The notes beneath the pieces are model-generated. The model saw only the letters and a list, made by a program, of their open reading frames with translations. It did not search any database and was not told the origin of the DNA. Source: a virus (Duplodnaviria > Caudoviricetes). From it: 64,000 bases of DNA. Position numbers and translations under genes: made by a program. The stretch covers positions 175,375 to 239,374 of the IMG/VR virus record IMGVR_UViG_2936514734_000001. One strand, given 5' to 3'. Positions 760 to 12,275 of the stretch are shown here, in pieces (position 1 is the first letter of the stretch; the number at the start of each line of letters is the position of its first letter).

Positions 760-1185
760 TCAGGAAGATACTTTACGTATAGATTTAACTAATATACGAA
801 ACGGATCATCATCTTGTTTAACCGTTATAGTTGTATTTGCCTCCGATACAAAGTCGCATACTTTTTCGGGTCTAAACACAATACCGGTAGTAATTATAAT
901 ATCCCCAATAGCAATATCCAGTTGGTCCCAAAATACTGGTGGTACCACTACAAGTAATTCTCCAAGAGTATCATCAATTGTTACAAATATAATCCGCTGC
1001 CTTTGATCATCAATCAGCATACCTGTATCGACTATATATTTAACTTTACCACCGCATGTAACTTCATCTTTTTGTTTGCTACTTTTTTGAATAGTATAAG
1101 AGAATGCTGTTATATGTGGCTTAATAGTATCGATAATATTTTTAATCTCTTTTTGTCTTTCTTTTTCGTGATTAGTTAATGGCAA
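760..1185 (-). CDS. OB-fold nucleic-acid-binding protein (resembles the DnaE OB domain)
   Basis: FVTIDDTLGELLVVV...GDIIITTG pattern; likely TTG start at 1185 behind GAAAGGGG, overlapping the RNase H stop. Confidence 0.55.
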   Translation of the reverse strand: MPLTNHEKERQKEIKNIIDTIKPHITAFSYTIQKSSKQKDEVTCGGKVKYIVDTGMLIDDQRQRIIFVTIDDTLGELLVVVPPVFWDQLDIAIGDIIITTGIVFRPEKVCDFVSEANTTITVKQDDDPFRILVKSIRKVSS

Positions 1186-1852
1186 ATTCTTCGCCCCTTT
1201 CATACATATCCATGAGTTGATTAACAAGCGCATCTGTGATTTTATTGTGTTCTCTTGGTACATGCTTCAACTCTACATTAGGGAATGAGTACAATTTATT
1301 CTTTAATTCTAGGGCGTAATCTCTAAATATCTTTTGTGCAGGTAGTTTAGTTGATACATGCTGTACCATGGATGCACTATCTGTTACAAATATGATTCTG
1401 TCTGCTTTAACCTTATATTTTTCTACAAACAATAAAGCTTGTAGTAAGCCATGATACTCCGCAAGAGTCGAATTAATATCTACTGTTTCACCTGTTGGTA
1501 AAGTAATTTTGTCACCAATAAATGTCGCATCATGTTTTAACATCTTTTGATCACCGTAGATAGCAAAAGCACTAGCCGATAATGAACGTAAGTTGTTGTC
1601 ATGATTATTTCGAACACCTCCATCAGTAAAGACAACCACAGTGTTATATTTCTCTTGAAATGTTTTCTGAGTCTTTAAATCTTCTAATAGAGCGCCTACA
1701 TCGTATCCATTTTCCTTCATCTCTTTCAATAGCAAATCTTGTTTTAAAGAAATTTCTTTTGCTGAACTATGATTACCGCTATCAACTTGTTCATAAAAAG
1801 AAAAAAACAGATGACTAAACTCACTAGCCATCTGCTCGACTGTATTAACCAA
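1172..1852 (-). CDS. Ribonuclease HI-family protein with N-terminal extension
   Basis: Motifs FTDGG, AEYHGL, TDS, HVPREHNKITDAL (D-E-D-D catalytic set). Confidence 0.85.
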   Translation of the reverse strand: MVNTVEQMASEFSHLFFSFYEQVDSGNHSSAKEISLKQDLLLKEMKENGYDVGALLEDLKTQKTFQEKYNTVVVFTDGGVRNNHDNNLRSLSASAFAIYGDQKMLKHDATFIGDKITLPTGETVDINSTLAEYHGLLQALLFVEKYKVKADRIIFVTDSASMVQHVSTKLPAQKIFRDYALELKNKLYSFPNVELKHVPREHNKITDALVNQLMDMYERGEEFAIN

Positions 1853-2720
1853 GGTATTGATTAATGATACTTTCTTTATTTAGGAACGTGCGGTAAATTC
1901 CTTTTCGCGTATCAAAAGTGATAGCAAAACAATGTAATCCAGGCATATCCTCATTATCTATTCTTGCAGTTAGGAGGATATTTGCAAAGTTAAACAATAG
2001 GTTAGCAGCTGTAATGTTAGTCATAATGTTTTGTGGGTGAGATACCGCTGCTTCGTCACAACTTAGCTCTGTAGGTAGTTTATCCGCACCTTCTAGTACT
2101 TCAGGAAACATTTCACCTACCATTGGTGTGCGGAACCAAGAGTTTTGACCAAGTTCATTTACATAACCTCTTCCTGGTAAAAATCCGCATACAACTTGAC
2201 CATTCAAGAATTCATTACCACTACTTAATGAAAAAACGCCTCTAGTTTTTTGTTGAAGCTCTAATGCTGCCTCATGAATGAATACGCGTGTTTTATTATT
2301 ATCAACACAATCAACTAATACAGGAATCATAGGAGGTTCATTTTCCAATAAAGATAAAACCAACTTAGTTAACATTTCTGTATTAGTGATATATTCATCT
2401 AAATATTGAATGTTTGTGCTAAAAGCAACACCGTAACGGGTAGATAGAACTTCTGCTTTATTCTTTTCTAAATCCTTTTCTACAAAGTTCTGACGATTAA
2501 GGTTAGATAAAGACACAGTATCTGCATCAATAAGAACTAACTTATGCGGAGGTAGTCCTTCCATTTTTCTTAATTTATTTGTAATTGAGATTTGTCTTGC
2601 TAGGTTAGGAATAAGGTAACCACCTGTTCCACCCGCACCCACTACTACGAATAGTTTAGATATGTGATATGATGTGTCAAGATTGTATGTAGTTTCTAAA
2701 TTTAATTGTAACGTTGACAT
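1845..2720 (-). CDS. ThiF/E1-like ubiquitin-activating enzyme (PRTRC ThiF type)
   Basis: VVGAGGTGG, DADTVSLSNLNRQNF, DCVDNNKTR, GNE..GQV, LSCDEA (candidate catalytic Cys). Confidence 0.9.
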   Translation of the reverse strand: MSTLQLNLETTYNLDTSYHISKLFVVVGAGGTGGYLIPNLARQISITNKLRKMEGLPPHKLVLIDADTVSLSNLNRQNFVEKDLEKNKAEVLSTRYGVAFSTNIQYLDEYITNTEMLTKLVLSLLENEPPMIPVLVDCVDNNKTRVFIHEAALELQQKTRGVFSLSSGNEFLNGQVVCGFLPGRGYVNELGQNSWFRTPMVGEMFPEVLEGADKLPTELSCDEAAVSHPQNIMTNITAANLLFNFANILLTARIDNEDMPGLHCFAITFDTRKGIYRTFLNKESIINQYLG

Positions 2721-2776
2721 ATTAATTCCCCTCTCTATAACCGAAAAGTGTAGGGGCGTTAGCCCCCACTATCTTA

Positions 2777-4042
2777 TTAAATTTGGTTTTGTTTAACCGC
2801 ACCGATTGCGGCTTCAATAATTTGGTTGTAACCTAACTTTGTATAATCAGCTGTGATATCAGCAACATTATCCGCTACATCCAACTTCCTTACTTCATCT
2901 TTTAAGTCTAAGAACTGAACAATTTCTGCGTTTTCAAAATCATTCGTACTGAATGGTAGTGCTGAATGACCACCATATCCTTCATTTAGAAGGTGACTGC
3001 TGTACATAGCTTCCTCCAAGCCGTAGAGATCGCCTTCAAAATCCTCTGGAAATAATGTTGTTTGCCCTGATAAAGGCTGAAGTTTTCCGTTTGCTTTGGC
3101 GAGATAACTGTTACTGGGATAGGTTGATTTCAAATTCGGAACATATTTCTTAGTATGTTGTTCCATCCATTCCGCTGGGTATTCAATATTTTCGAATGGT
3201 CCTCGATAAAGCTCCTCTGTAGTTTCTGTAAACGTCTGTGACTCGAAACCTGGAACAGTAGAGCTAACAACATGAGTTGATGTCGTAACCATCATAGGCC
3301 AATCAAACAATACAGAAGGGCATACTAATTTTTTAGATTTACCTGTAACATAACGAAATGCGAAAGCAGGTTGTTCATTTTTAATCTGACCCCATACTCC
3401 ATAAAACTGCGTGCTGTTTTCATTGGCGTCATCTGTAGAGCTAAAAAATGCATTCATAGTATGGTGTGAATGAGTTTCTGCTAATAAGGATAAGTTTTGT
3501 CTTAGCCAGTCAACCATTGGGTCGCCATGAAATTCTGACAAACTAGCACTATTTTCTTGTCGTGGAACATACACAACTAATTGCCCATCAACCAACAACC
3601 CCTTCATTGGAGTATCATCAGAGTACTTAACTGGCAATGCTTTGTTGTCTTTATTCCAAAAGAAAAGCAATGATGCTTCAGTTCCATCCTTAGCGTGAAC
3701 ATCACGATAAAAGCTTAAAGCCATTTGAAGATACTTGAATGGAATTTTCGGAACAAGTAGTTCTGTTCCTTCAGTCATTTTATTTAAACCAGGGATGCTA
3801 TCTTTAAAATCTTGTACCTTTGTTTTAAATACTGCTGTATCAGTTTTCTCTACACGGAATAAACCGTTAGCTGCTGTCACAAAGTTAATCTTTTTCAAAG
3901 AGTCTGTGTTGTAATTAGAGTCATAAGCTAAGTATTCCGTTACTTGACTTGCAATCTGACTCGCTAGTAGATTTGATAGATTAAGTGTCATTTGTATGCT
4001 CTCCATTCTAACTTTTTCTCTTGTAATAAATGTTATTAACAC
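2777..4042 (-). CDS. JAB/MPN+ metallopeptidase (PRTRC protein A-like)
   Basis: JAMM motif HSHHTMNAFFSSTDD plus upstream Glu (GTEA); start may be 4006. Confidence 0.88.
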   Translation of the reverse strand: MLITFITREKVRMESIQMTLNLSNLLASQIASQVTEYLAYDSNYNTDSLKKINFVTAANGLFRVEKTDTAVFKTKVQDFKDSIPGLNKMTEGTELLVPKIPFKYLQMALSFYRDVHAKDGTEASLLFFWNKDNKALPVKYSDDTPMKGLLVDGQLVVYVPRQENSASLSEFHGDPMVDWLRQNLSLLAETHSHHTMNAFFSSTDDANENSTQFYGVWGQIKNEQPAFAFRYVTGKSKKLVCPSVLFDWPMMVTTSTHVVSSTVPGFESQTFTETTEELYRGPFENIEYPAEWMEQHTKKYVPNLKSTYPSNSYLAKANGKLQPLSGQTTLFPEDFEGDLYGLEEAMYSSHLLNEGYGGHSALPFSTNDFENAEIVQFLDLKDEVRKLDVADNVADITADYTKLGYNQIIEAAIGAVKQNQI

Positions 4043-4134
4043 ATATTCCCCTTATAAACAGTGTTACTTAGTTTATTCTAGGGGAATCTGTTATTTTATA
4101 GGTTAATACAGTGTTTATGAGTTGATTCTCAAAG

Positions 4135-4905
4135 TCATTCAAAGATGCCTGGAAGATAGTTTTTCACTGCTTGTTGCACATCTAATGTTGAAGATGATTT
4201 AAGCGAGTCAAAGGGATAAACAAATTCTTCTCCCGCTTCTTTGCTTGCTTGTAGTTTTCTAGATAAATCAACCATATGATAAACAGCACAATCTGTATTA
4301 AATGGTGAATATTCCTCGGATTCAGGATCTGGATTCCATTCAAATTCTTTTACTCGATTATGAGAAAGATCAAAGTTAAATGGTTGAGCAAAGAAACGTG
4401 CTGGAATATTTTGAATCGATTTACCCGTTGGTACCTCTGGATTTTCATGTCCCCAACAAATACCATGAGCAACACCGATATTAGGAAAAGGCGCATGTAA
4501 GACCTTATCCTTAAATGAAAGCAATTCGTGTTTAAGTACGTACATCATAGAATGTCTTAAACGTTTTCTTCCATTTCCATCAGTAAATACTTCAAAAATC
4601 CAAAGCATTGGCGGTACTGGAATAGTAAACTCTTTAGGAACACCAGTATCACGCGATGCAAAAACAACCTGTCTCTCTGTTGCAGGTGTGGTCATTACAT
4701 AGCCTTCGTAATGATTCTTACGATAATACTTAACAACTCCCCATTGAGAAGGAAGAAGCGGTGTTTCCATGGCCTGCTCCTTCATAAAGATTTCTTGAAT
4801 AGTTTCGATGTTTGTATGTTTAATTGTTTTAATCCCTTGCTCATTAACAGTCGTTACTGTTACCTTTTCTGGTTCTAAAACAATAGTTGTGCTTGGTGTA
4901 GCCAT
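4135..4905 (-). CDS. Prokaryotic E2-like ubiquitin-conjugating protein (PRTRC protein B-like)
   Basis: HAPFPNI...GICWG motif with Cys, followed by FF.QPFN.DL; sits beside E1/JAB. Confidence 0.8.
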   Translation of the reverse strand: MATPSTTIVLEPEKVTVTTVNEQGIKTIKHTNIETIQEIFMKEQAMETPLLPSQWGVVKYYRKNHYEGYVMTTPATERQVVFASRDTGVPKEFTIPVPPMLWIFEVFTDGNGRKRLRHSMMYVLKHELLSFKDKVLHAPFPNIGVAHGICWGHENPEVPTGKSIQNIPARFFAQPFNFDLSHNRVKEFEWNPDPESEEYSPFNTDCAVYHMVDLSRKLQASKEAGEEFVYPFDSLKSSSTLDVQQAVKNYLPGIFE

Positions 4906-5177
4906 TATTTTACCTCCCTAATGTTCAATACGCCTTGAATGAATTCTGCATTTTTATCACTATTAAAATCCGCTTTGATTTTATCAATATCAATTCCTAG
5001 CTCTACTGCTTGCTCAAAGGATATTCCAGCTTCACTCATTACTTCATCCGTAATTTTCTCTTCTAAAAGCTCACCCTTATCTAAAGAGGCGGACTGAATA
5101 GCTTCCTCTTTAGATAATGCCTTTACCTTATATTTTTGTTCAGCAAGAACTAATAAAGTTACCTCATACTCTTTCAT
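4905..5177 (-). CDS. Hypothetical protein in the Ubl operon
   Basis: GGAGG SD; stop overlaps the E2 start. Confidence 0.7.
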   Translation of the reverse strand: MKEYEVTLLVLAEQKYKVKALSKEEAIQSASLDKGELLEEKITDEVMSEAGISFEQAVELGIDIDKIKADFNSDKNAEFIQGVLNIREVK

Positions 5178-5191
5178 TAGTAATCCTCCAA

Positions 5192-6829
5192 TCAGCCTGC
5201 AAAGCTATGAATAGTGAGCAATGCCTGTTGTTTTGTACTGTGTCGATCTACAAATTTATAAATAGAATAAAGACCAGGTGGTAATTGTAATGCACGCAAT
5301 GCCTTATCTATATCTTGATGTATTGTGTACAATCTTTTTACTCCCTCTTCATCTATTCGTATCGCGCCTATTGTACCTGAGCTGTCTCTAACAACTACAA
5401 AGCCATTAGGATGTTTCGCATTTTTTGTAAGTAATTCCTTACTGAAATCTATAGAAGTTCTTTCGAAACTGTATAAATCATTATCAATGAAAGTTGAAGC
5501 TGAACTTGAGTCTTCTTCACTTTGTCCTTCTAACAGTTTAGAAGTCGTAAGGAATTTCTCCACAACCGCTTTAGGATCTAACGATCTATCTTGTTTAATA
5601 AAATCAACTACAGCACTAAATACTGTATTCTCCTGCATTTCAAGTTTTTCTAATGGTTTCTCTAAAGATTCCACTAGTTTCTTACAGATTTCAATTTCTT
5701 CTACTAACTCTTCCGGTATTAATTGTTTAAAATCTTCATGTGATGCTTTTACAAAGATATTATTATTAATAATGTAAGGATTAGCTCCATCTAGACTACG
5801 AGGTGATTCATTATCATAATCAGTGTATTGACCTACTCCTAAATACTTAAGTTCCTCAGTATCAGCGGGCAAAGTATCTGAAATGATAATTGGCTTAGCT
5901 ACATAACTCGCATCATCACTCATATCATGTGAAGAATAGATATGGACAGAAGAACCTAAGAAAAGCAGATCCTCAAATGATGGCTCTTTAACAAACACAT
6001 CTCTATTGTGTTCTACACAAAGATTGCGTAAAGCTTCATCTTCTATAAGTGAAACGGGAACAATCATCTTAGAAAGCAACTCTTTAAGAATAGAAACTCC
6101 AAACTTCATATGTTCTTCACGTAGTGATTCTTTTAGTCGTTCATTAAAAGCATCAACCGCATCATTTAAAGTGCTGTAGTCATCAGATAAATCTTGGATA
6201 TACCTTTTCTCTGATTTAACTACCTGATAAATATTTGAGAAATATGTGCTACCTGCACTTAGTCCAAATAAGCGTCCTCTACTATCATGTGGAAGACAGA
6301 AATCCCCACTTAAAGGAATCTTATTTCTCACGAGAATCAAGTTATCATCTTCATCTTTTGTGCATAGGCTCCTAATACGGTCATAATAGTAATTAGAACG
6401 AAACTTACGCCAAAAACCTGAGTTGTAACTTTGCAAAAATGAATCTCTAAAGCGAGCCATATTCTTATACTTTTCAAACTTCTCAATCATAGCTGCTGTC
6501 TCTTCGTCAATTACTAATTTAAAGACATCAGAATGATTATCGTTACTTACTAATTCTTCGTGAGTAATCTCATAGTATTGATTTAGCTCCTTAAGGATTT
6601 CATTAGTAACTTCAAAGAATAGCTGCTTAGATTGTTCAAGATTATTAGAAGGAACATTCTCCATCTTTTCTTGCAGGATATTAATAATTTCTGTAAAGCG
6701 TTCCTCGGGCATACTATTCTTTAGACTATGTAAAAGATTAAAAACCCCACGTCTATATTCAACTTCTGTAGTCATAAGCTCATTTGACATGTAAACTCTC
6801 CTTTCTTTATTAGATGTAATCGACATCAA
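5192..6829 (-). CDS. Hypothetical acidic ~530-aa protein in the Ubl operon
   Basis: Long ORF; likely start 6790 after AAGGAGAG; no motif recognised. Confidence 0.75.
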   Translation of the reverse strand: MMSITSNKERRVYMSNELMTTEVEYRRGVFNLLHSLKNSMPEERFTEIINILQEKMENVPSNNLEQSKQLFFEVTNEILKELNQYYEITHEELVSNDNHSDVFKLVIDEETAAMIEKFEKYKNMARFRDSFLQSYNSGFWRKFRSNYYYDRIRSLCTKDEDDNLILVRNKIPLSGDFCLPHDSRGRLFGLSAGSTYFSNIYQVVKSEKRYIQDLSDDYSTLNDAVDAFNERLKESLREEHMKFGVSILKELLSKMIVPVSLIEDEALRNLCVEHNRDVFVKEPSFEDLLFLGSSVHIYSSHDMSDDASYVAKPIIISDTLPADTEELKYLGVGQYTDYDNESPRSLDGANPYIINNNIFVKASHEDFKQLIPEELVEEIEICKKLVESLEKPLEKLEMQENTVFSAVVDFIKQDRSLDPKAVVEKFLTTSKLLEGQSEEDSSSASTFIDNDLYSFERTSIDFSKELLTKNAKHPNGFVVVRDSSGTIGAIRIDEEGVKRLYTIHQDIDKALRALQLPPGLYSIYKFVDRHSTKQQALLTIHSFAG

Positions 6830-7085
6830 AAGAGAAAACGTTTGGTAGTCGATCTAAACCAACAAGGTATTTCTTATACTCTTGCAAGTACGTTTTCAAT
6901 TGACGATCCATATTGTTAATAATGTTTGAGTTTTGATTTGTCATGTATTCATTAAATTCAAGAAAAGTCATTGGCTTTGTTAAGGTAGCAGAAGCTTCTG
7001 CAATTTCCGATGGCCAAAATTCAGTTTCTTGCACTTGTTCAAAACCATTTATAACTCTTAAAGTGAGCGGCGCTTGCTTTTCCAT
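6810..7085 (-). CDS. Hypothetical protein
   Basis: ORF with GGAGG SD before MEKQAP at 7085. Confidence 0.6.
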   Translation of the reverse strand: MEKQAPLTLRVINGFEQVQETEFWPSEIAEASATLTKPMTFLEFNEYMTNQNSNIINNMDRQLKTYLQEYKKYLVGLDRLPNVFSFDVDYI

Positions 7086-7254
7086 AAAGGAACCTCCGTA
7101 TCTATTAAAATAAAACAAAATATGAGGGAAACCAGTTTTAAACACCAGTTTCCCTTTCAATAAAACATATTCTGTTAGAATCCACTAGAAATCAGTGGAT
7201 GTGACCTTAAAAAGGTACTGACTATCTATTGGATTCTAGTATTTTCTATTAGAA

Positions 7255-7962
7255 TTAGTTGCCTTTAGTTCCTGCTTTAGCAGAGAAAGTAACTGTGTTT
7301 CCATTTTGAACAACGTTAGCATTTTCTAATTCCGGAAAGTTTTCTGCCATTGCTACTTTAAGTTGGTTAAGGTCTGTTGTTGCTGGCACGTTGATTTTTG
7401 TATCACCGTAAACCACTTCTAGTTGATCTGCACCTTTTGTACCTGCTTTTGCGTTGAAGATAATTTGACCTTCATTTACTGTTACGTTAGCATTTTCTAA
7501 TTCAGGGAAGTTCTCAGCCATTGCTACTTTGATGTCCGCTAATTCAGTGCTTGCTGGTAAGTTAATTTTAGTATCTCCATAAACTACTTCTACAGTTTCC
7601 ATTTCACCCGCTCCTTTAGTTCCTGCTTTTGCTTTAAATACGATTTCATTGTCGTTCACTTGTACATCAGCGTTTTCAAGCTCCGGGAAATTCTCAGCCA
7701 TCGCTGCTTTGATGCTTGATAATTCAGTACCTACTGGTAAATCGATTTTAGTATCTCCGTAAATCACCTTTAAGTTTTCCATGTTTGTTGCCCCTTTCGT
7801 TCCTGCTTTCGCTGTGAATTCAATTACATTACCGTTTACTGCTACATTTGCATTTTCAAGTTCTGGGAAGTTTTCAGCCATAGCTACCTTAATACTTTCT
7901 AAAGCTGTACCTTCTGGAAGATTGATTTTTGTATCACCATAAATTACTTGTAATGTGTTCAT
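7255..7962 (-). CDS. Poly-ubiquitin-like precursor: four tandem Prok_Ub/PRTRC protein C-like units
   Basis: Four ~58-aa repeats, each with YGDTKI, AMAENFPELENA and ending AKAGTKG; AGAGGAG SD before ATG 7962. Confidence 0.88.
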   Translation of the reverse strand: MNTLQVIYGDTKINLPEGTALESIKVAMAENFPELENANVAVNGNVIEFTAKAGTKGATNMENLKVIYGDTKIDLPVGTELSSIKAAMAENFPELENADVQVNDNEIVFKAKAGTKGAGEMETVEVVYGDTKINLPASTELADIKVAMAENFPELENANVTVNEGQIIFNAKAGTKGADQLEVVYGDTKINVPATTDLNQLKVAMAENFPELENANVVQNGNTVTFSAKAGTKGN

Positions 7963-8139
7963 TTGAAATTCTCCTCTTATAGAAACCATTAGTTTTTTAT
8001 TTTTCAATAGGGTTTCGTTAATTTTTTTTATTTTTTTTAGGGCATTGTGTATGCATATAGAAATCTAGGTTAATACCCTATAAAAACTTAGATTCCACTA
8101 GAAATTACTCAAAAAAAATAGACCTGCTTGATCAGCGGG

Positions 8140-8400
8140 TTATTCCCAACCAATCAATACAGGTCCTTTAAAGTCTACAATTCCAGAAACTAATTCTAGA
8201 TGTGCTGTACCGCAATCTGGACAAATAGAAAAGATACTTTCAAATTCTGTTTTTGTATGCGGCATTCCCGCTACATTTAAGAATTCTTCAATAAGCTCTA
8301 AATCATTATTACACATTGTGCAAGTAGATTGATTTGTAGCTCCTACTTGTCTAAGGTGTTTCGTGTAATCCATCGGTACCAATACCAGTTCGTAACTCAT
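8140..8400 (-). CDS. Small zinc-ribbon protein
   Basis: CTMC ... CPDC; GGGAGG SD. Confidence 0.65.
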   Translation of the reverse strand: MSYELVLVPMDYTKHLRQVGATNQSTCTMCNNDLELIEEFLNVAGMPHTKTEFESIFSICPDCGTAHLELVSGIVDFKGPVLIGWE

Positions 8401-8806
8401 TTAATTTTTCCTCCCAATGATAAAGCCCAGCTACAGCATTCTTATTTGTAACTGGCTTCAGCTCTACATATATAGAAACTACAGTTTTATCATTTCTTAG
8501 AGTGACAATATCATCACCAGTAACGTAATAGCCTTTAATTGATATGTAGAACTCTTTAAGCGTTTGTTCTAAGTTGTTTTGATTACAATAATTAACGTAA
8601 TAGCTTTCTAGATTCTTATTAAAAGATGTAATAGAACTTATGAATCGATTATAGTGTGATCTTCCATCAAATAAGCCTCTAGTAAATCGTAATTCATATA
8701 CACCATTTGTATTAATTACTCTTTGTATAAAATGGTCAATTGATGATTCGTTCATTACACTTTCAAAAACTTCAACTGCGTCGAGTTTCTTATCTAATTT
8801 TTGCAA
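8351..8806 (-). CDS. Hypothetical protein
   Basis: ORF with GGGAGAGG SD. Confidence 0.6.
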   Translation of the reverse strand: MQKLDKKLDAVEVFESVMNESSIDHFIQRVINTNGVYELRFTRGLFDGRSHYNRFISSITSFNKNLESYYVNYCNQNNLEQTLKEFYISIKGYYVTGDDIVTLRNDKTVVSIYVELKPVTNKNAVAGLYHWEEKLNELRTGIGTDGLHETP

Positions 8807-8830
8807 CAGGATCCTCTCCCTTTATTATGC

Positions 8831-9298
8831 TTAACTAGCTTCCTGGTACTCGACTTGTTCAGATTGTACTTTTTCTTGAGCTTTTAATCTTACTTGCTTT
8901 GCATACATTTCTTGTTGCTCTTGTTTTCTAACGTGTCGAGGAAGGAACATCCTTGCGCCATTAAGACCATACGCAATGCGGTTCCAATCTGTCAAGATGG
9001 TTGTTTTGAGCAATTTCGGATTTTGTAAAATAACATTGTATGCTTCTCTTAGGGTTAAGTCATCTAAATCAATCCCTTGTTCAGTTAAGAAATCGATTGT
9101 ACTGCCCCGCTGTGTTAATAAGTCATCTAAGCCATCTTCAGTAAGATGTAGTAGTGCTTGAAATTCTTTAAAAGTAAAGCGATCTCGCACAATGTGCTTG
9201 ATTGTGGCATTAAGATTATACTTAGATAGTTTTTCAGCCACTTTTTCTCCTTCGGATGTATTGATTGTGTAAATAGTTATAAATTGATTCTCCAACAA
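8831..9298 (-). CDS. Spx/ArsC-family transcription regulator homologue lacking CxxC
   Basis: LTEDGLDDLL, QNPKLLK..I.TD..R...G, MFLPRHVRK match B. subtilis Spx (MTEDGTDEII, PGLLRRPII, FLPRKVR). Confidence 0.8.
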   Translation of the reverse strand: MLENQFITIYTINTSEGEKVAEKLSKYNLNATIKHIVRDRFTFKEFQALLHLTEDGLDDLLTQRGSTIDFLTEQGIDLDDLTLREAYNVILQNPKLLKTTILTDWNRIAYGLNGARMFLPRHVRKQEQQEMYAKQVRLKAQEKVQSEQVEYQEAS

Positions 9299-9869: not shown

Positions 9870-9986
9870 GTACTAATCTTATCATGACTTTTTTAAAAGT
9901 TCAATAGTACATATAGTTTTTCTTTGCCTTTTTTAGTCTTTTATCCTAGTAAACTACAAAAATACTATGGATTGGAGGCTTTTTTC

Positions 9987-11132
9987 ATGTCAAAAAAGCT
10001 CATTAAACTTAGCGATATTATTAAACAAGAATTCTACCAATTACCTAAACTAGTTGTTTGGAACCAGACATACCGTGAAGGATTAAGCGACGGTGCTAAA
10101 TTGCTTTACATGATTATTCGTGACCGCTTTTCATTATCTGTTCATACTTCTGAACAAGAAATTAAACAAGGTAAACCATTAACATATGTAGATCAAGACG
10201 AAAACGTATTTTGTATTTTAGACAATGGTGAAATCGAATTCACTTTAAATAAAACTAAGAAAACGGCTATTAAATGTATGCAAGAATTAGAAACCTTCGA
10301 ATTAATTGAAACAAAAGAAGTTGAAGGTGGCGCAAACAGAATCTACTTGAAAGACTTAGATTCTAGTGGAATCTCTTTAGCAACATTTATTGGCGAGAAA
10401 GATTATTATAAGCATGTTCAATCTCGCAAGAAAAAAGGCAAAGATCCATCTAAGACTTTGGAGGAATTTATCGAAGCTGCTGAAAGACGATTACAAGGTA
10501 AAGATGAAAGTAATGAATCCGACAAGAGTTCAAAAAACAGGGGTGGAAATAATACACCCCCTAGGGATGGAAAAGATACACCCCCCGGGGAGGAAGAAAG
10601 TACACCTCTAGGGGATGGAGAAACTGCACCCCCAGGGGTGGAAAAACTACACCCTAATAAGAATGACTCTAACTCTAATAACTCTAAATCACCTGAAAGT
10701 AATGAGAATGAGTTTAATGAATCTTCTTCTAGTGATAAAGAGCCTAGCGGTTTAGAAGAAGAACAACCAATGATTATCACAGTTGATAATAACTATGCTT
10801 TATTGGAGTCTATTAAGCCAATTCATGAAATATGCAAAACCCAAAAAGATATTAATGTCGTCAAAAAAGCCCTGATTGAAGCTAAAATAGAGGGTTTCTA
10901 TAAGTGTGATGTACTTAATGCAATTGGTTCACATGCTAAGAACATGAATGCTTACAGAGCTAAAGGTGAAACTATCCGCTATGAGCCTGCATTCTTTGCT
11001 AATAATCTAGTTGACCGTATCATTTCTAATGCTGCAGAAAGACAAGCTAAGTCTGAAAAAGAAGCTAAAAAAGCAAAACAACAAACCTTAAATTCTGGAC
11101 GTATACCCTTTTATAACTTTCTAGAAGAATAA
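9987..11132 (+). CDS. repA: Plasmid replication initiator, RepA_N family
   Basis: FYQLPK...LSDGAKLLY..IRDRFSLS...VD...EL...LI...NRIYL; GGAGG SD before ATG 9987; C-terminal FYNFLEE. Confidence 0.88.
   Translation: MSKKLIKLSDIIKQEFYQLPKLVVWNQTYREGLSDGAKLLYMIIRDRFSLSVHTSEQEIKQGKPLTYVDQDENVFCILDNGEIEFTLNKTKKTAIKCMQELETFELIETKEVEGGANRIYLKDLDSSGISLATFIGEKDYYKHVQSRKKKGKDPSKTLEEFIEAAERRLQGKDESNESDKSSKNRGGNNTPPRDGKDTPPGEEESTPLGDGETAPPGVEKLHPNKNDSNSNNSKSPESNENEFNESSSSDKEPSGLEEEQPMIITVDNNYALLESIKPIHEICKTQKDINVVKKALIEAKIEGFYKCDVLNAIGSHAKNMNAYRAKGETIRYEPAFFANNLVDRIISNAAERQAKSEKEAKKAKQQTLNSGRIPFYNFLEE
10540..10654 (+). repeat. Five ~24-bp iterons inside repA (probable oriV)
   Basis: GGG(G/A)(T/G)GG-A-rich-T(A/G)CACCC units at ~10540, 10564, 10588, 10612, 10635. 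Confidence 0.75.
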
Positions 11133-11285: not shown

Positions 11286-12275
11286 ATGGCATTAAATTTG
11301 ATTTTAGGTGTTGACGCTGGGCTTAACTCAGTTAAAGTTGTAGGTCAAAAAGGTGAAACAAAATTCGCATCTGTTGTCACTAGAAAACCTGCACATGCTA
11401 AGACTTTCAAAGGCGTTTTAAGCTATGAGGAAAAGAATAAACAAAACAGATTTGAATTAACAGTTGATAACAAAGAATATTACTTAGGTGAGCATGCGAT
11501 CTTTGCTACTAAAAACAGCGGTGTAAGACGTGGTGGCGGTAGTGATGGTACTGGCTCTAAGAATAATACTAAAGCATTTATCCGCGCTCTAGGTGGAATC
11601 TGCTTATATATTGATCATTATGAAAGATTCGATGATACAGAGATTAATGTATTTTTAACATATGGTACTCCTATAAACAGTGCAACAAATGATGATGAAA
11701 TCGAAGAAATTGAAGAGCGCTTCAAAAACCAAGGACGTCCTATCGAGCTTACATATAACGGCGTTAAACTAAGTATTTCAATCAAGGACATTATTGTATT
11801 ACCAGAAGGTGCAGCGGCATATTACGCCAAAGAGGATTATGAAGAAGAAGATGTATATATCCTTGATGCTGGATCACAAACTGTTAACCTTACACACTTA
11901 GAAGATGGAGCTCCTGTTCCAAATAGCTCTGACAACTTAACTGTAGGTGTTGAATTCTACAAAGAAACATACCCTGACAATACCGCTGAAGTATTGAGCG
12001 AGGATGCTATTGAGATGTTAAGTGAAGAGTTAAGATGGCCTAAAGGTTCGAAAATTCATGTGTGTGGTGGATATGCTAATCAATTAGCTTTGGCATTTAA
12101 TGTAGTAGCTGATGGTAACTATACTGCAGAAGTATTAGTGCCAGAGATTCCTTTATCAGGAAGACGTGTTAAGACACTTGACCCTATTTATGCAAATGCA
12201 ACAGGTCTTTTCTTCCTTGCTCTAGAAGCTTTCCAAGATTACATCAATGTTGCTAAGCCAAAGGTAAAAGGGTGA
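11286..12275 (+). CDS. parM: ParM/Alp actin-like segregation ATPase
   Basis: GVDAGLNSVK (phosphate 1), LPEGAAA, ILDAGSQTVN (phosphate 2), CGGYA, YANATG. Confidence 0.88.
   Translation: MALNLILGVDAGLNSVKVVGQKGETKFASVVTRKPAHAKTFKGVLSYEEKNKQNRFELTVDNKEYYLGEHAIFATKNSGVRRGGGSDGTGSKNNTKAFIRALGGICLYIDHYERFDDTEINVFLTYGTPINSATNDDEIEEIEERFKNQGRPIELTYNGVKLSISIKDIIVLPEGAAAYYAKEDYEEEDVYILDAGSQTVNLTHLEDGAPVPNSSDNLTVGVEFYKETYPDNTAEVLSEDAIEMLSEELRWPKGSKIHVCGGYANQLALAFNVVADGNYTAEVLVPEIPLSGRRVKTLDPIYANATGLFFLALEAFQDYINVAKPKVKG

Follow-up and report, generated by a model that had tools for sequence, protein, structure and literature searches.

Four tandem ubiquitin-like units in a polyubiquitin-like gene layout within a type 6d operon of a Bacillus jumbo phage-plasmid

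Recent work has established that ubiquitin-like conjugation does take place in bacteria, as in CBASS Cap2, Bil and Bub, and has linked it to immunity. The type 6d operon was described by Iyer, Burroughs and Aravind in 2006, and comprises genes for a Prok_Ub protein, a Prok-E2_D protein, a JAB with a JAB-N domain, a ThiF E1 and a helical protein (PMC1779556). It overlaps the TIGRFAM/NCBIfam PRTRC system, and the 2006 table includes Bacillus cereus and B. thuringiensis as carriers (PMC1779556). That study mentions tandem ubiquitin-like (Ubl) proteins for type 6e alone, where there are two or three repeats; the tandem beta-grasp repeats of the type 6e polyUbl (now Bub Ubl3) were there called 'reminiscent of eukaryotic poly-ubiquitin' (PMC1779556). 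The 6d/PRTRC-type operon is still uncharacterised as far as we found in the literature. Publications on PRTRC, on Prok_Ub and on jumbo phages and ubiquitin yielded no functional study, no tandem Ubls in type 6d operons and no phage-borne 6d operon, and neither a jumbo-phage comparative review nor a pBtic235 paper mentions the tandem Ubl operon.

In the Bil system the JAB pre-processes the Ubl at a Gly-Ala junction, and the system conjugates the Ubl to lysine (PMC10557695). This JAB (BilC) cuts BilA between Gly97 and Ala98 and also cuts a Ubl-GFP fusion, so that it is tolerant of what follows the glycine (PMC10557695). Among eukaryotic polyubiquitin genes, yeast UBI4 has five ubiquitin repeats followed by an extra Asn, and a review of ubiquitin genes terms it 'enigmatic' why only ubiquitin comes as head-to-tail repeats or fusions (PMC8122580).

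The operon and its genomic setting

The window, by which is meant the whole stretch of 64,000 nt analysed here, covers the final 64 kb of an IMG/VR virus record of 239,374 bp that is rated 100% complete and encodes a terminase, a portal and a tail sheath. The polyUbl operon resides in a complete 239-kb pBtic235-like jumbo phage-plasmid (Bacillus). The nearest annotated relatives are a plasmid-prophage of the pBtic235 type (235 kb) from B. thuringiensis israelensis and a B. velezensis plasmid of 220 kb. Both have syntenic four-unit genes labelled 'hypothetical protein', in which all units end in AKAGTKG; their C-terminal tails are 17 and 10 residues respectively, compared with the single Asn in the window. 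Megablast against a phage collection gave no match, and a search for related loci returned none in viral contigs (with alignment A1 as query) and none in genome contigs (with the whole protein as query). The context of the homologous loci is drawn from plasmid records and metagenome contigs.

All the window genes from 760 to 9298 lie on the minus strand. The polyUbl gene heads the operon and is followed by a small ORF of unknown function (6810-7160, minus strand), which is listed with 116 aa but probably starts, like its homologues, at the ATG at 7085 and then has 91 aa. The listed form overlaps the putative terminator described below, and the ORF has no family match in Pfam, PADLOC or NCBIfam. 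Next is a large ORF with no assigned family (5192-6829, minus strand; 532-545 aa), located at the place of the type 6d 'novel alpha-helical protein'. It has no match in Pfam, NCBIfam, PADLOC or Atlas, and the Atlas model is of poor quality (pLDDT 0.35). Across the loci examined this position is always occupied by a protein of 530-680 aa. A 90-aa ORF of unknown function (4905-5177, minus strand), which is present at homologous loci, abuts the start codon of the E2 gene. The region between the Ubl and the E2 (4905-7160) contains three conserved ORFs of about 91, 530-680 and 90 aa that are always there, and their products are candidate E3, adaptor or target proteins.

The E2-like protein (4135-4905, minus strand) matches Pfam Prok-E2_D with 32.2 bits (cut-off 25), and has Cys150 in the motif PN-x-G-x(5)-C-W-G. 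In an alignment of 6 loci both Cys150 (F-P-N...C150-W-G) and His210 are invariant. The following gene encodes a JAB/JAMM metalloprotease with an N-terminal extension (2777-4042, minus strand, with a probable start at 4009; Pfam Prok-JAB 26.5 bits, cut-off 25). Its residues E111, H180, H182, S190 and D193 are invariant in 34 homologues; in the same number of sequences W118 is invariant and R52 is at least 90% conserved, and these last two residues presumably belong to the JAB-N domain. A genome search finds it to be the single JAB in the 239-kb phage genome. The ThiF-type E1 adenylyltransferase (1845-2720, minus strand; Pfam ThiF 60.7 bits) contains the motifs GAGGTGG, NRQN and DCVDNNKTR, and these together with Cys138, Cys178 and Cys221 are invariant in the E1 alignment. 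The conservation of catalytic residues supports the view that the operon encodes intact E1, E2 and JAB proteins. PADLOC-DB 2.0.0 assigned neither Bil nor any other defence system, the E1 having only weak E1-E2 (CBASS Cap2-type) matches.

An RNase H-like (RVT_3) gene (1172-1852, minus strand) comes directly after the E1 in every long locus examined. Wherever the flank is long enough (L003, L013, L014, L015 and L016) it is followed by a few small ORFs and then by DnaE (PHP/DNA_pol3_alpha), which in L016 is split by a LAGLIDADG gene. A small ORF of the window (760-1263) has a weak OB-fold match, below the cut-off. RepA_N and ParM-like genes adjoin the operon at close homologue loci, and their window counterparts are at 9924-11132 and 11286-12275. 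Partition at the homologue loci is of the ParM/ALP type, and ParB_N has no match across the complete 239-kb record. The Ubl operon lies within the replication module of the phage, together with RepA_N, ParM-like, RNase H-like, OB-fold and DnaE genes. The order of its genes, Ubl(n), small ORF, large ORF, E2_D, JAB, ThiF and RNase H-like, is found at loci with 2, 4, 5 and 7 units, synteny having been checked only where contigs were long enough. At the seven-unit locus (L003, 10302-11365) an insertion of two DUF5065 genes separates the polyUbl gene from the remaining operon.

The polyUbl gene and its relatives

The polyUbl ORF is located at 7255-7962 including the stop, as originally predicted, on the minus strand, which had been missing from the prediction. 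It encodes 235 aa, comprising four tandem Ubl units with a one-residue Asn cap. Starting at the N-terminus, unit 1 (7792-7962) is formed by residues 1-57, unit 2 (7612-7791) by residues 58-117 (linker ATN plus core), unit 3 (7432-7611) by residues 118-177 (linker AGE plus core) and unit 4 (7261-7431) by residues 178-234, all read from the minus strand and each ending in AKAGTKG. The Asn codon (7258-7260), the TAA stop (7255-7257) and a Shine-Dalgarno AGGAG (7971-7975), 8 nt upstream of the ATG at 7962, were read from the sequence of the same strand. A longer protein starting at a TTG at 8007 is possible, but homologues start at the equivalent of the ATG.

The units are 57-60 aa, with linkers of 0-3 residues between them. 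The residue after AKAGTKG is A at each of the three junctions and finally N before the stop; translation and unit alignment thus bear out the four units, their ends and the residues that follow them as originally described. Identity to unit 1 is 67-76%, and 33 alignment columns are invariant, among them those of FPELENA and AKAGTKG; the earlier observation that FPELENA and GTKG are invariant while other positions differ holds. In the DNA, Tandem Repeats Finder detects a repeat with a period of 180 (2.6 copies, 74% matches, score 486). The four-unit tandem architecture of the gene is real and far beyond chance, and a tandem-unit architecture is seen again in each close homologue.

A terminator-like hairpin with a 12 bp stem and a T-run (7115-7155, minus strand) lies ~100 nt downstream of the polyUbl stop, before the next gene. 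With this putative terminator after the gene, the Ubl may be expressed in excess of the enzymes. The intergenic RNA 3′ of the polyUbl stop (7161-7254, minus strand) is predicted to fold as a long imperfect hairpin (-26.4 kcal/mol, z = -2.6), inside which is the inverted repeat GAATCCACTAGAAATCAGTGGAT. A listing made from the sequence alone places boxes of TCCACTAGAA elsewhere, around the rep and par genes.

The polyUbl protein matches Pfam Prok_Ub with 31.8 bits (cut-off 25) and Pfam ThiS with 25.6 bits (cut-off 22.5). Its match to NCBIfam PRTRC_C is below the cut-off, with the last profile position falling on the final Gly of the unit. It has no match to the ubiquitin family in Pfam (PF00240), and the tail is ...GTKG rather than di-Gly. 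Each unit scores above the Prok_Ub cut-off, and in the AF2 model (pLDDT 90.8) a unit folds as a small beta-grasp domain whose 7-residue tail is floppy. The fold matches of the unit are beta-grasp proteins, MoaD among them, with Z values that are modest because the domain is small and with Foldseek E-values that are not significant. Together these results support the assignment of the units as Ubl (beta-grasp, Prok_Ub) domains.

A word-indexed search returned 20 close homologues with 3, 4, 5 or 7 units. Including the window protein, all 84 units of these 21 closest proteins end in KAGTKG, and a free C-terminal Gly is present in none of the proteins. An exhaustive profile search of 1.84 billion representatives gave 94 proteins. 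The combined set comprises 102 intact relatives with 255 units; P0087 (1817 aa, with 9 weak partial matches) was treated as unrelated. A comparison of repeat number among homologues, proposed as a check in the original prediction, finds one unit in 28 of the 102 proteins, two in 37, three in 10, four in 16, five in 9 and seven in 2. A K-G end is present in 253 of the 255 units. At the internal junctions (n = 153) the next residue is A in 88 cases, S in 36, M in 12, L in 7, N in 5, T in 3 and V in 2.

The C-termini of the 102 proteins vary. Sixteen end with a free Gly, 43 have one extra residue, 13 have 2-3 residues, 19 have 4-20 residues and 11 carry longer unrelated domains; the two commonest first tail residues in the capped relatives are N (22) and I (15). 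The free-Gly ends, the short caps and the unrelated longer tails indicate that the Gly marks the end of the functional unit. The one-residue cap noted at the outset is the commonest state (43/102), but it is not a fixed feature, the tails being 0 to 19 residues among syntenic homologues. The comparison upholds the polyubiquitin-like layout that had been proposed, with unit numbers from 1 to 7, homogenised units, K-G kept on the units and variable caps.

Some relatives depart from this pattern. In P0037, P0062, P0082 and P0109 the tandem units end in ...VVAQNKS, with Ser in place of Gly. P0037 has five units, and its operon has a weak Prok-E2_D match, followed by an ORF of 405 aa that takes the place of the JAB but lacks a Pfam match, and then by ThiF. 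As this ...AQNKS lineage occurs in the same operon type, the terminal Gly is not absolute. Other relatives (P0091, P0096, P0098, P0099, P0102, P0104, P0106-P0108, P0110 and P0111) have a single Ubl ending in KAG[RK]KG that is followed by an unrelated C-terminal domain of 48-133 aa, some of these being Cys-rich. They have weak PRTRC_C matches below the cut-off, and their layout recalls that of the ubiquitin-ribosomal protein fusion genes.

In the 21 closest proteins the mean identity between units is 81% within a protein compared with 62% between proteins, and for 53 of the 84 units the nearest neighbour is in the same protein. Units that are at least 90% identical occur in 21 of 73 multi-unit proteins, and the identity is 100% in three. 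Across four-unit proteins, units at the same position are 69.2% identical and those at different positions 68.0%; strong positional orthology was rejected on this difference of only 1.2 percentage points. This pattern of identity is the one that concerted evolution or repeated duplication leaves behind, and polyubiquitin genes show it too. The four units of the window are older paralogues, with dS values of 1.4-1.9 (synonymous sites saturated) and omega of 0.07-0.16 between them. Some di-unit relatives have strongly diverged units (17-52% ungapped identity).

All four units of the window are under purifying selection when compared with orthologues, with omega (dN/dS) values of 0.04-0.27; those for unit 2 are 0.07-0.17. 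Diversifying selection between units was rejected on these values and on those between the paralogues. The idea in the original prediction that the units may have different partners finds no support, given the purifying selection, the closely similar identities at the same and at different positions, and the identical units in several relatives.

Proposed processing of the array

We consider it fairly probable that the gene is a polyubiquitin-type precursor of a phage Ubl modifier, matured by the JAB, activated by the E1 and carried by the E2. The translation product is four beta-grasp Ubl units connected head to tail. The JAMM/JAB of the operon would cut after Gly57, Gly117, Gly177 and Gly234, at the ends of the ...AKAGTKG tails, and the terminal Asn would also be removed, freeing four monomers that each have a free C-terminal Gly. 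The ThiF-type E1 would adenylate the freed Gly, and the Ubl would be handed on to the catalytic Cys of the Prok-E2_D E2 and conjugated to phage or host proteins. With the tandem layout, one short gene would provide several modifiers for each set of enzymes, and the putative terminator after the polyUbl gene may lift the Ubl output further above that of the enzymes. We infer cleavage, activation, conjugation and the dosage rationale alike.

Cleavage of the polyUbl protein into single modifiers is probable. It is favoured above all by the internal tails, which could be adenylated only after release and yet are conserved as strictly as the terminal tail. Unit number and caps vary freely among the relatives while the internal tails stay conserved. 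The cap site and the junctions share their upstream sequence, and BilC, the one bacterial Ubl-processing JAB that is characterised, accepts GFP after the Gly, so that a protease that removes the cap should be expected to cut the junctions too. The original prediction had further made maturation by the JAB the gate for the pathway. This is not universal in the family, since 16 of the 102 relatives already end with a free C-terminal Gly.

Some observations count against a cleaved precursor. The tail ends in a single Gly after Lys and not in Gly-Gly, the ...AQNKS lineage with its Ser end is found in the same operon type, and the units of the window have diverged (67-76%), unlike those of true polyubiquitin, so that a multi-domain protein would fit too. 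Such a protein would be a modifier that is used whole, with the JAB removing only the Asn and with attachment en bloc via Gly234. It would be a genetically encoded linear chain, comparable with ISG15, FAT10 and the Ubl3 of Bil and Bub, in which the unit number would set the chain length. Bacterial multi-beta-grasp Ubls with one to three domains work without internal cleavage (Ubl2 and Ubl3 of Bil and Bub act uncut, which also counts against the precursor), and Ubl3 makes dimers and filaments (PMC11601603). That the units of the window are old, diverged and each maintained (dS 1.4-1.9, omega below 0.3) would suit an array of this kind, as would the low identity of the units in some di-unit relatives. 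Yet the internal tails are conserved like the terminal one (253/255 K-G), for which there is no obvious reason if they are never released, and a JAB able to recognise AKAGTKG before Asn would be expected to recognise it before Ala as well, given that BilC tolerates GFP after the Gly. Moreover, the unit number ranges from 1 to 7 in syntenic operons and the units are homogenised, whereas the domains of ISG15 and Ubl3 are distinct. An uncut multi-domain Ubl would have a fixed number of distinct domains with a reactive C-terminus on the last only, and this is not what is found here. The full-length AF2 model lacks packing between the domains, but this is weak evidence because it is a single-sequence model with a pTM of 0.32. 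A cleaved precursor of the polyubiquitin type agrees better with the evidence than does an uncut multi-domain Ubl of the kind seen in ISG15 or Ubl3, and we regard use of the array as a whole as unlikely.

It is also conceivable that the protein modifies no other protein, and is either a sulfur carrier of the ThiS/MoaD type that acts with ThiF, or a scaffold or adaptor that binds non-covalently, for instance within the adjacent replication/partition module, where the repeats would add valency. The ThiS score of 25.6 bits, the presence of MoaD among the fold matches and the constant embedding of the operon in the replication module (RepA_N, ParM-like, RNase H-like, OB-fold and DnaE) are in keeping with these roles. 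However, an E2-like protein with an invariant catalytic Cys is always present together with a JAB, while sulfur-carrier systems have no E2 (PMC10557695), and there are no sulfurtransferase or cofactor-biosynthesis genes nearby. The variable caps after the Gly fit processing and not a structural linker. Roles of this sort we consider very unlikely.

Comparison with known systems

New here, as far as we found, are the tandem Ubl in a 6d operon and the phage-borne 6d operon; the 6d operon itself was already known. In the polyUbl family the gene architecture of polyubiquitin occurs outside eukaryotes, in an experimentally tractable form and with unit numbers that naturally range from 1 to 7. The family could serve to address tandem encoding as a dosage device, the JAMM protease as a maturase, and what it is that a temperate jumbo phage modifies. 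That the operon is always linked to the replication module may point to replication or maintenance proteins as targets, or to a role in excluding rival phages. A workable model would be pBtic235 of B. thuringiensis israelensis, with its four-unit homologue. The wider proposal is that the polyubiquitin gene has a true functional analogue in Bacillaceae jumbo phage-plasmids and in large phages related to them, with 1-7 units, concerted evolution, monomers cut by a JAMM protease and conjugation to phage or host proteins by the phage E1 and E2, and for this we find the balance to be even. If it is true, the proteobacterial fusions of a single Ubl to unrelated C-terminal domains would parallel the ubiquitin-ribosomal protein fusions, and both eukaryotic layouts of ubiquitin genes would exist, or have arisen independently, in the prokaryotic virosphere.

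The operon has the tested features of type 6d. These are a Prok_Ub Ubl with a C-terminal Gly, a Prok-E2_D protein with the Cys, without the classical HPN His and with a His C-terminal to the Cys, a JAMM protease with the Arg and Trp, and a ThiF E1. Shared with type 6d are the four Pfam families above their cut-offs, the gene set, the large uncharacterised operon protein and the location on a mobile element. The Ubl of type 6d was described as a small standalone protein, whereas here it is an array of 4 (1-7 in relatives); and the operon is carried by a jumbo phage-plasmid in place of an ICE or plasmid island, with no ParB in the genome. A strict PRTRC system (NCBIfam TIGR03734-03741) was rejected, all four models scoring far below their curated cut-offs (ThiF 94.6 versus 144.75, protein A 36.6 versus 101.8, protein B 26.9 versus 131.45 and protein C 28.5 versus 45.95) in addition to the lack of ParB.

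Bil (types I and II) and Bub share with the present operon the separate genes for Ubl, E2, JAB and E1. They differ in operon family, Bil type II being 6C and Bub 6E while the polyUbl operon is 6d, and an identity with either was rejected on these operon types and the lack of a PADLOC Bil match. Bil and Bub are host defence systems, whereas the polyUbl operon is phage-borne, and their multi-domain Ubls (Ubl2 and Ubl3) are single modifiers that are not cut internally. The type 6e polyUbl (Bub Ubl3) has two or three distinct domains in a fixed architecture, and forms Ca2+-dependent dimers and filaments as the intact protein; the units here are by comparison interchangeable, all with the K-G end, and are 1-7 in number.

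The eukaryotic polyubiquitin genes (UBI4, and human UBB and UBC) share with polyUbl the head-to-tail arrangement of units, the reactive Gly on each unit and the extra C-terminal residue, which is Asn both in UBI4 and here. The parallel with UBI4 drawn in the original prediction is correct, that gene having five repeats plus Asn (PMC8122580). The repeat number varies between lineages in both cases, with concerted evolution. Eukaryotic polyubiquitin requires a deubiquitinase-type protease before activation by the E1 (PMC8122580), and a parallel need is proposed here, where cleavage would be the work of a JAMM metalloprotease in place of a Cys-type deubiquitinase. The ubiquitin unit is 76 aa and ends in GG compared with 57 aa and TKG here, and there is no detectable sequence homology. 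A further difference is that the polyUbl units are connected by linkers of 0-3 residues and are non-identical in the window (67-76%), while those of relatives reach 100%. The likeness to polyubiquitin is one of gene architecture, and not of family membership.
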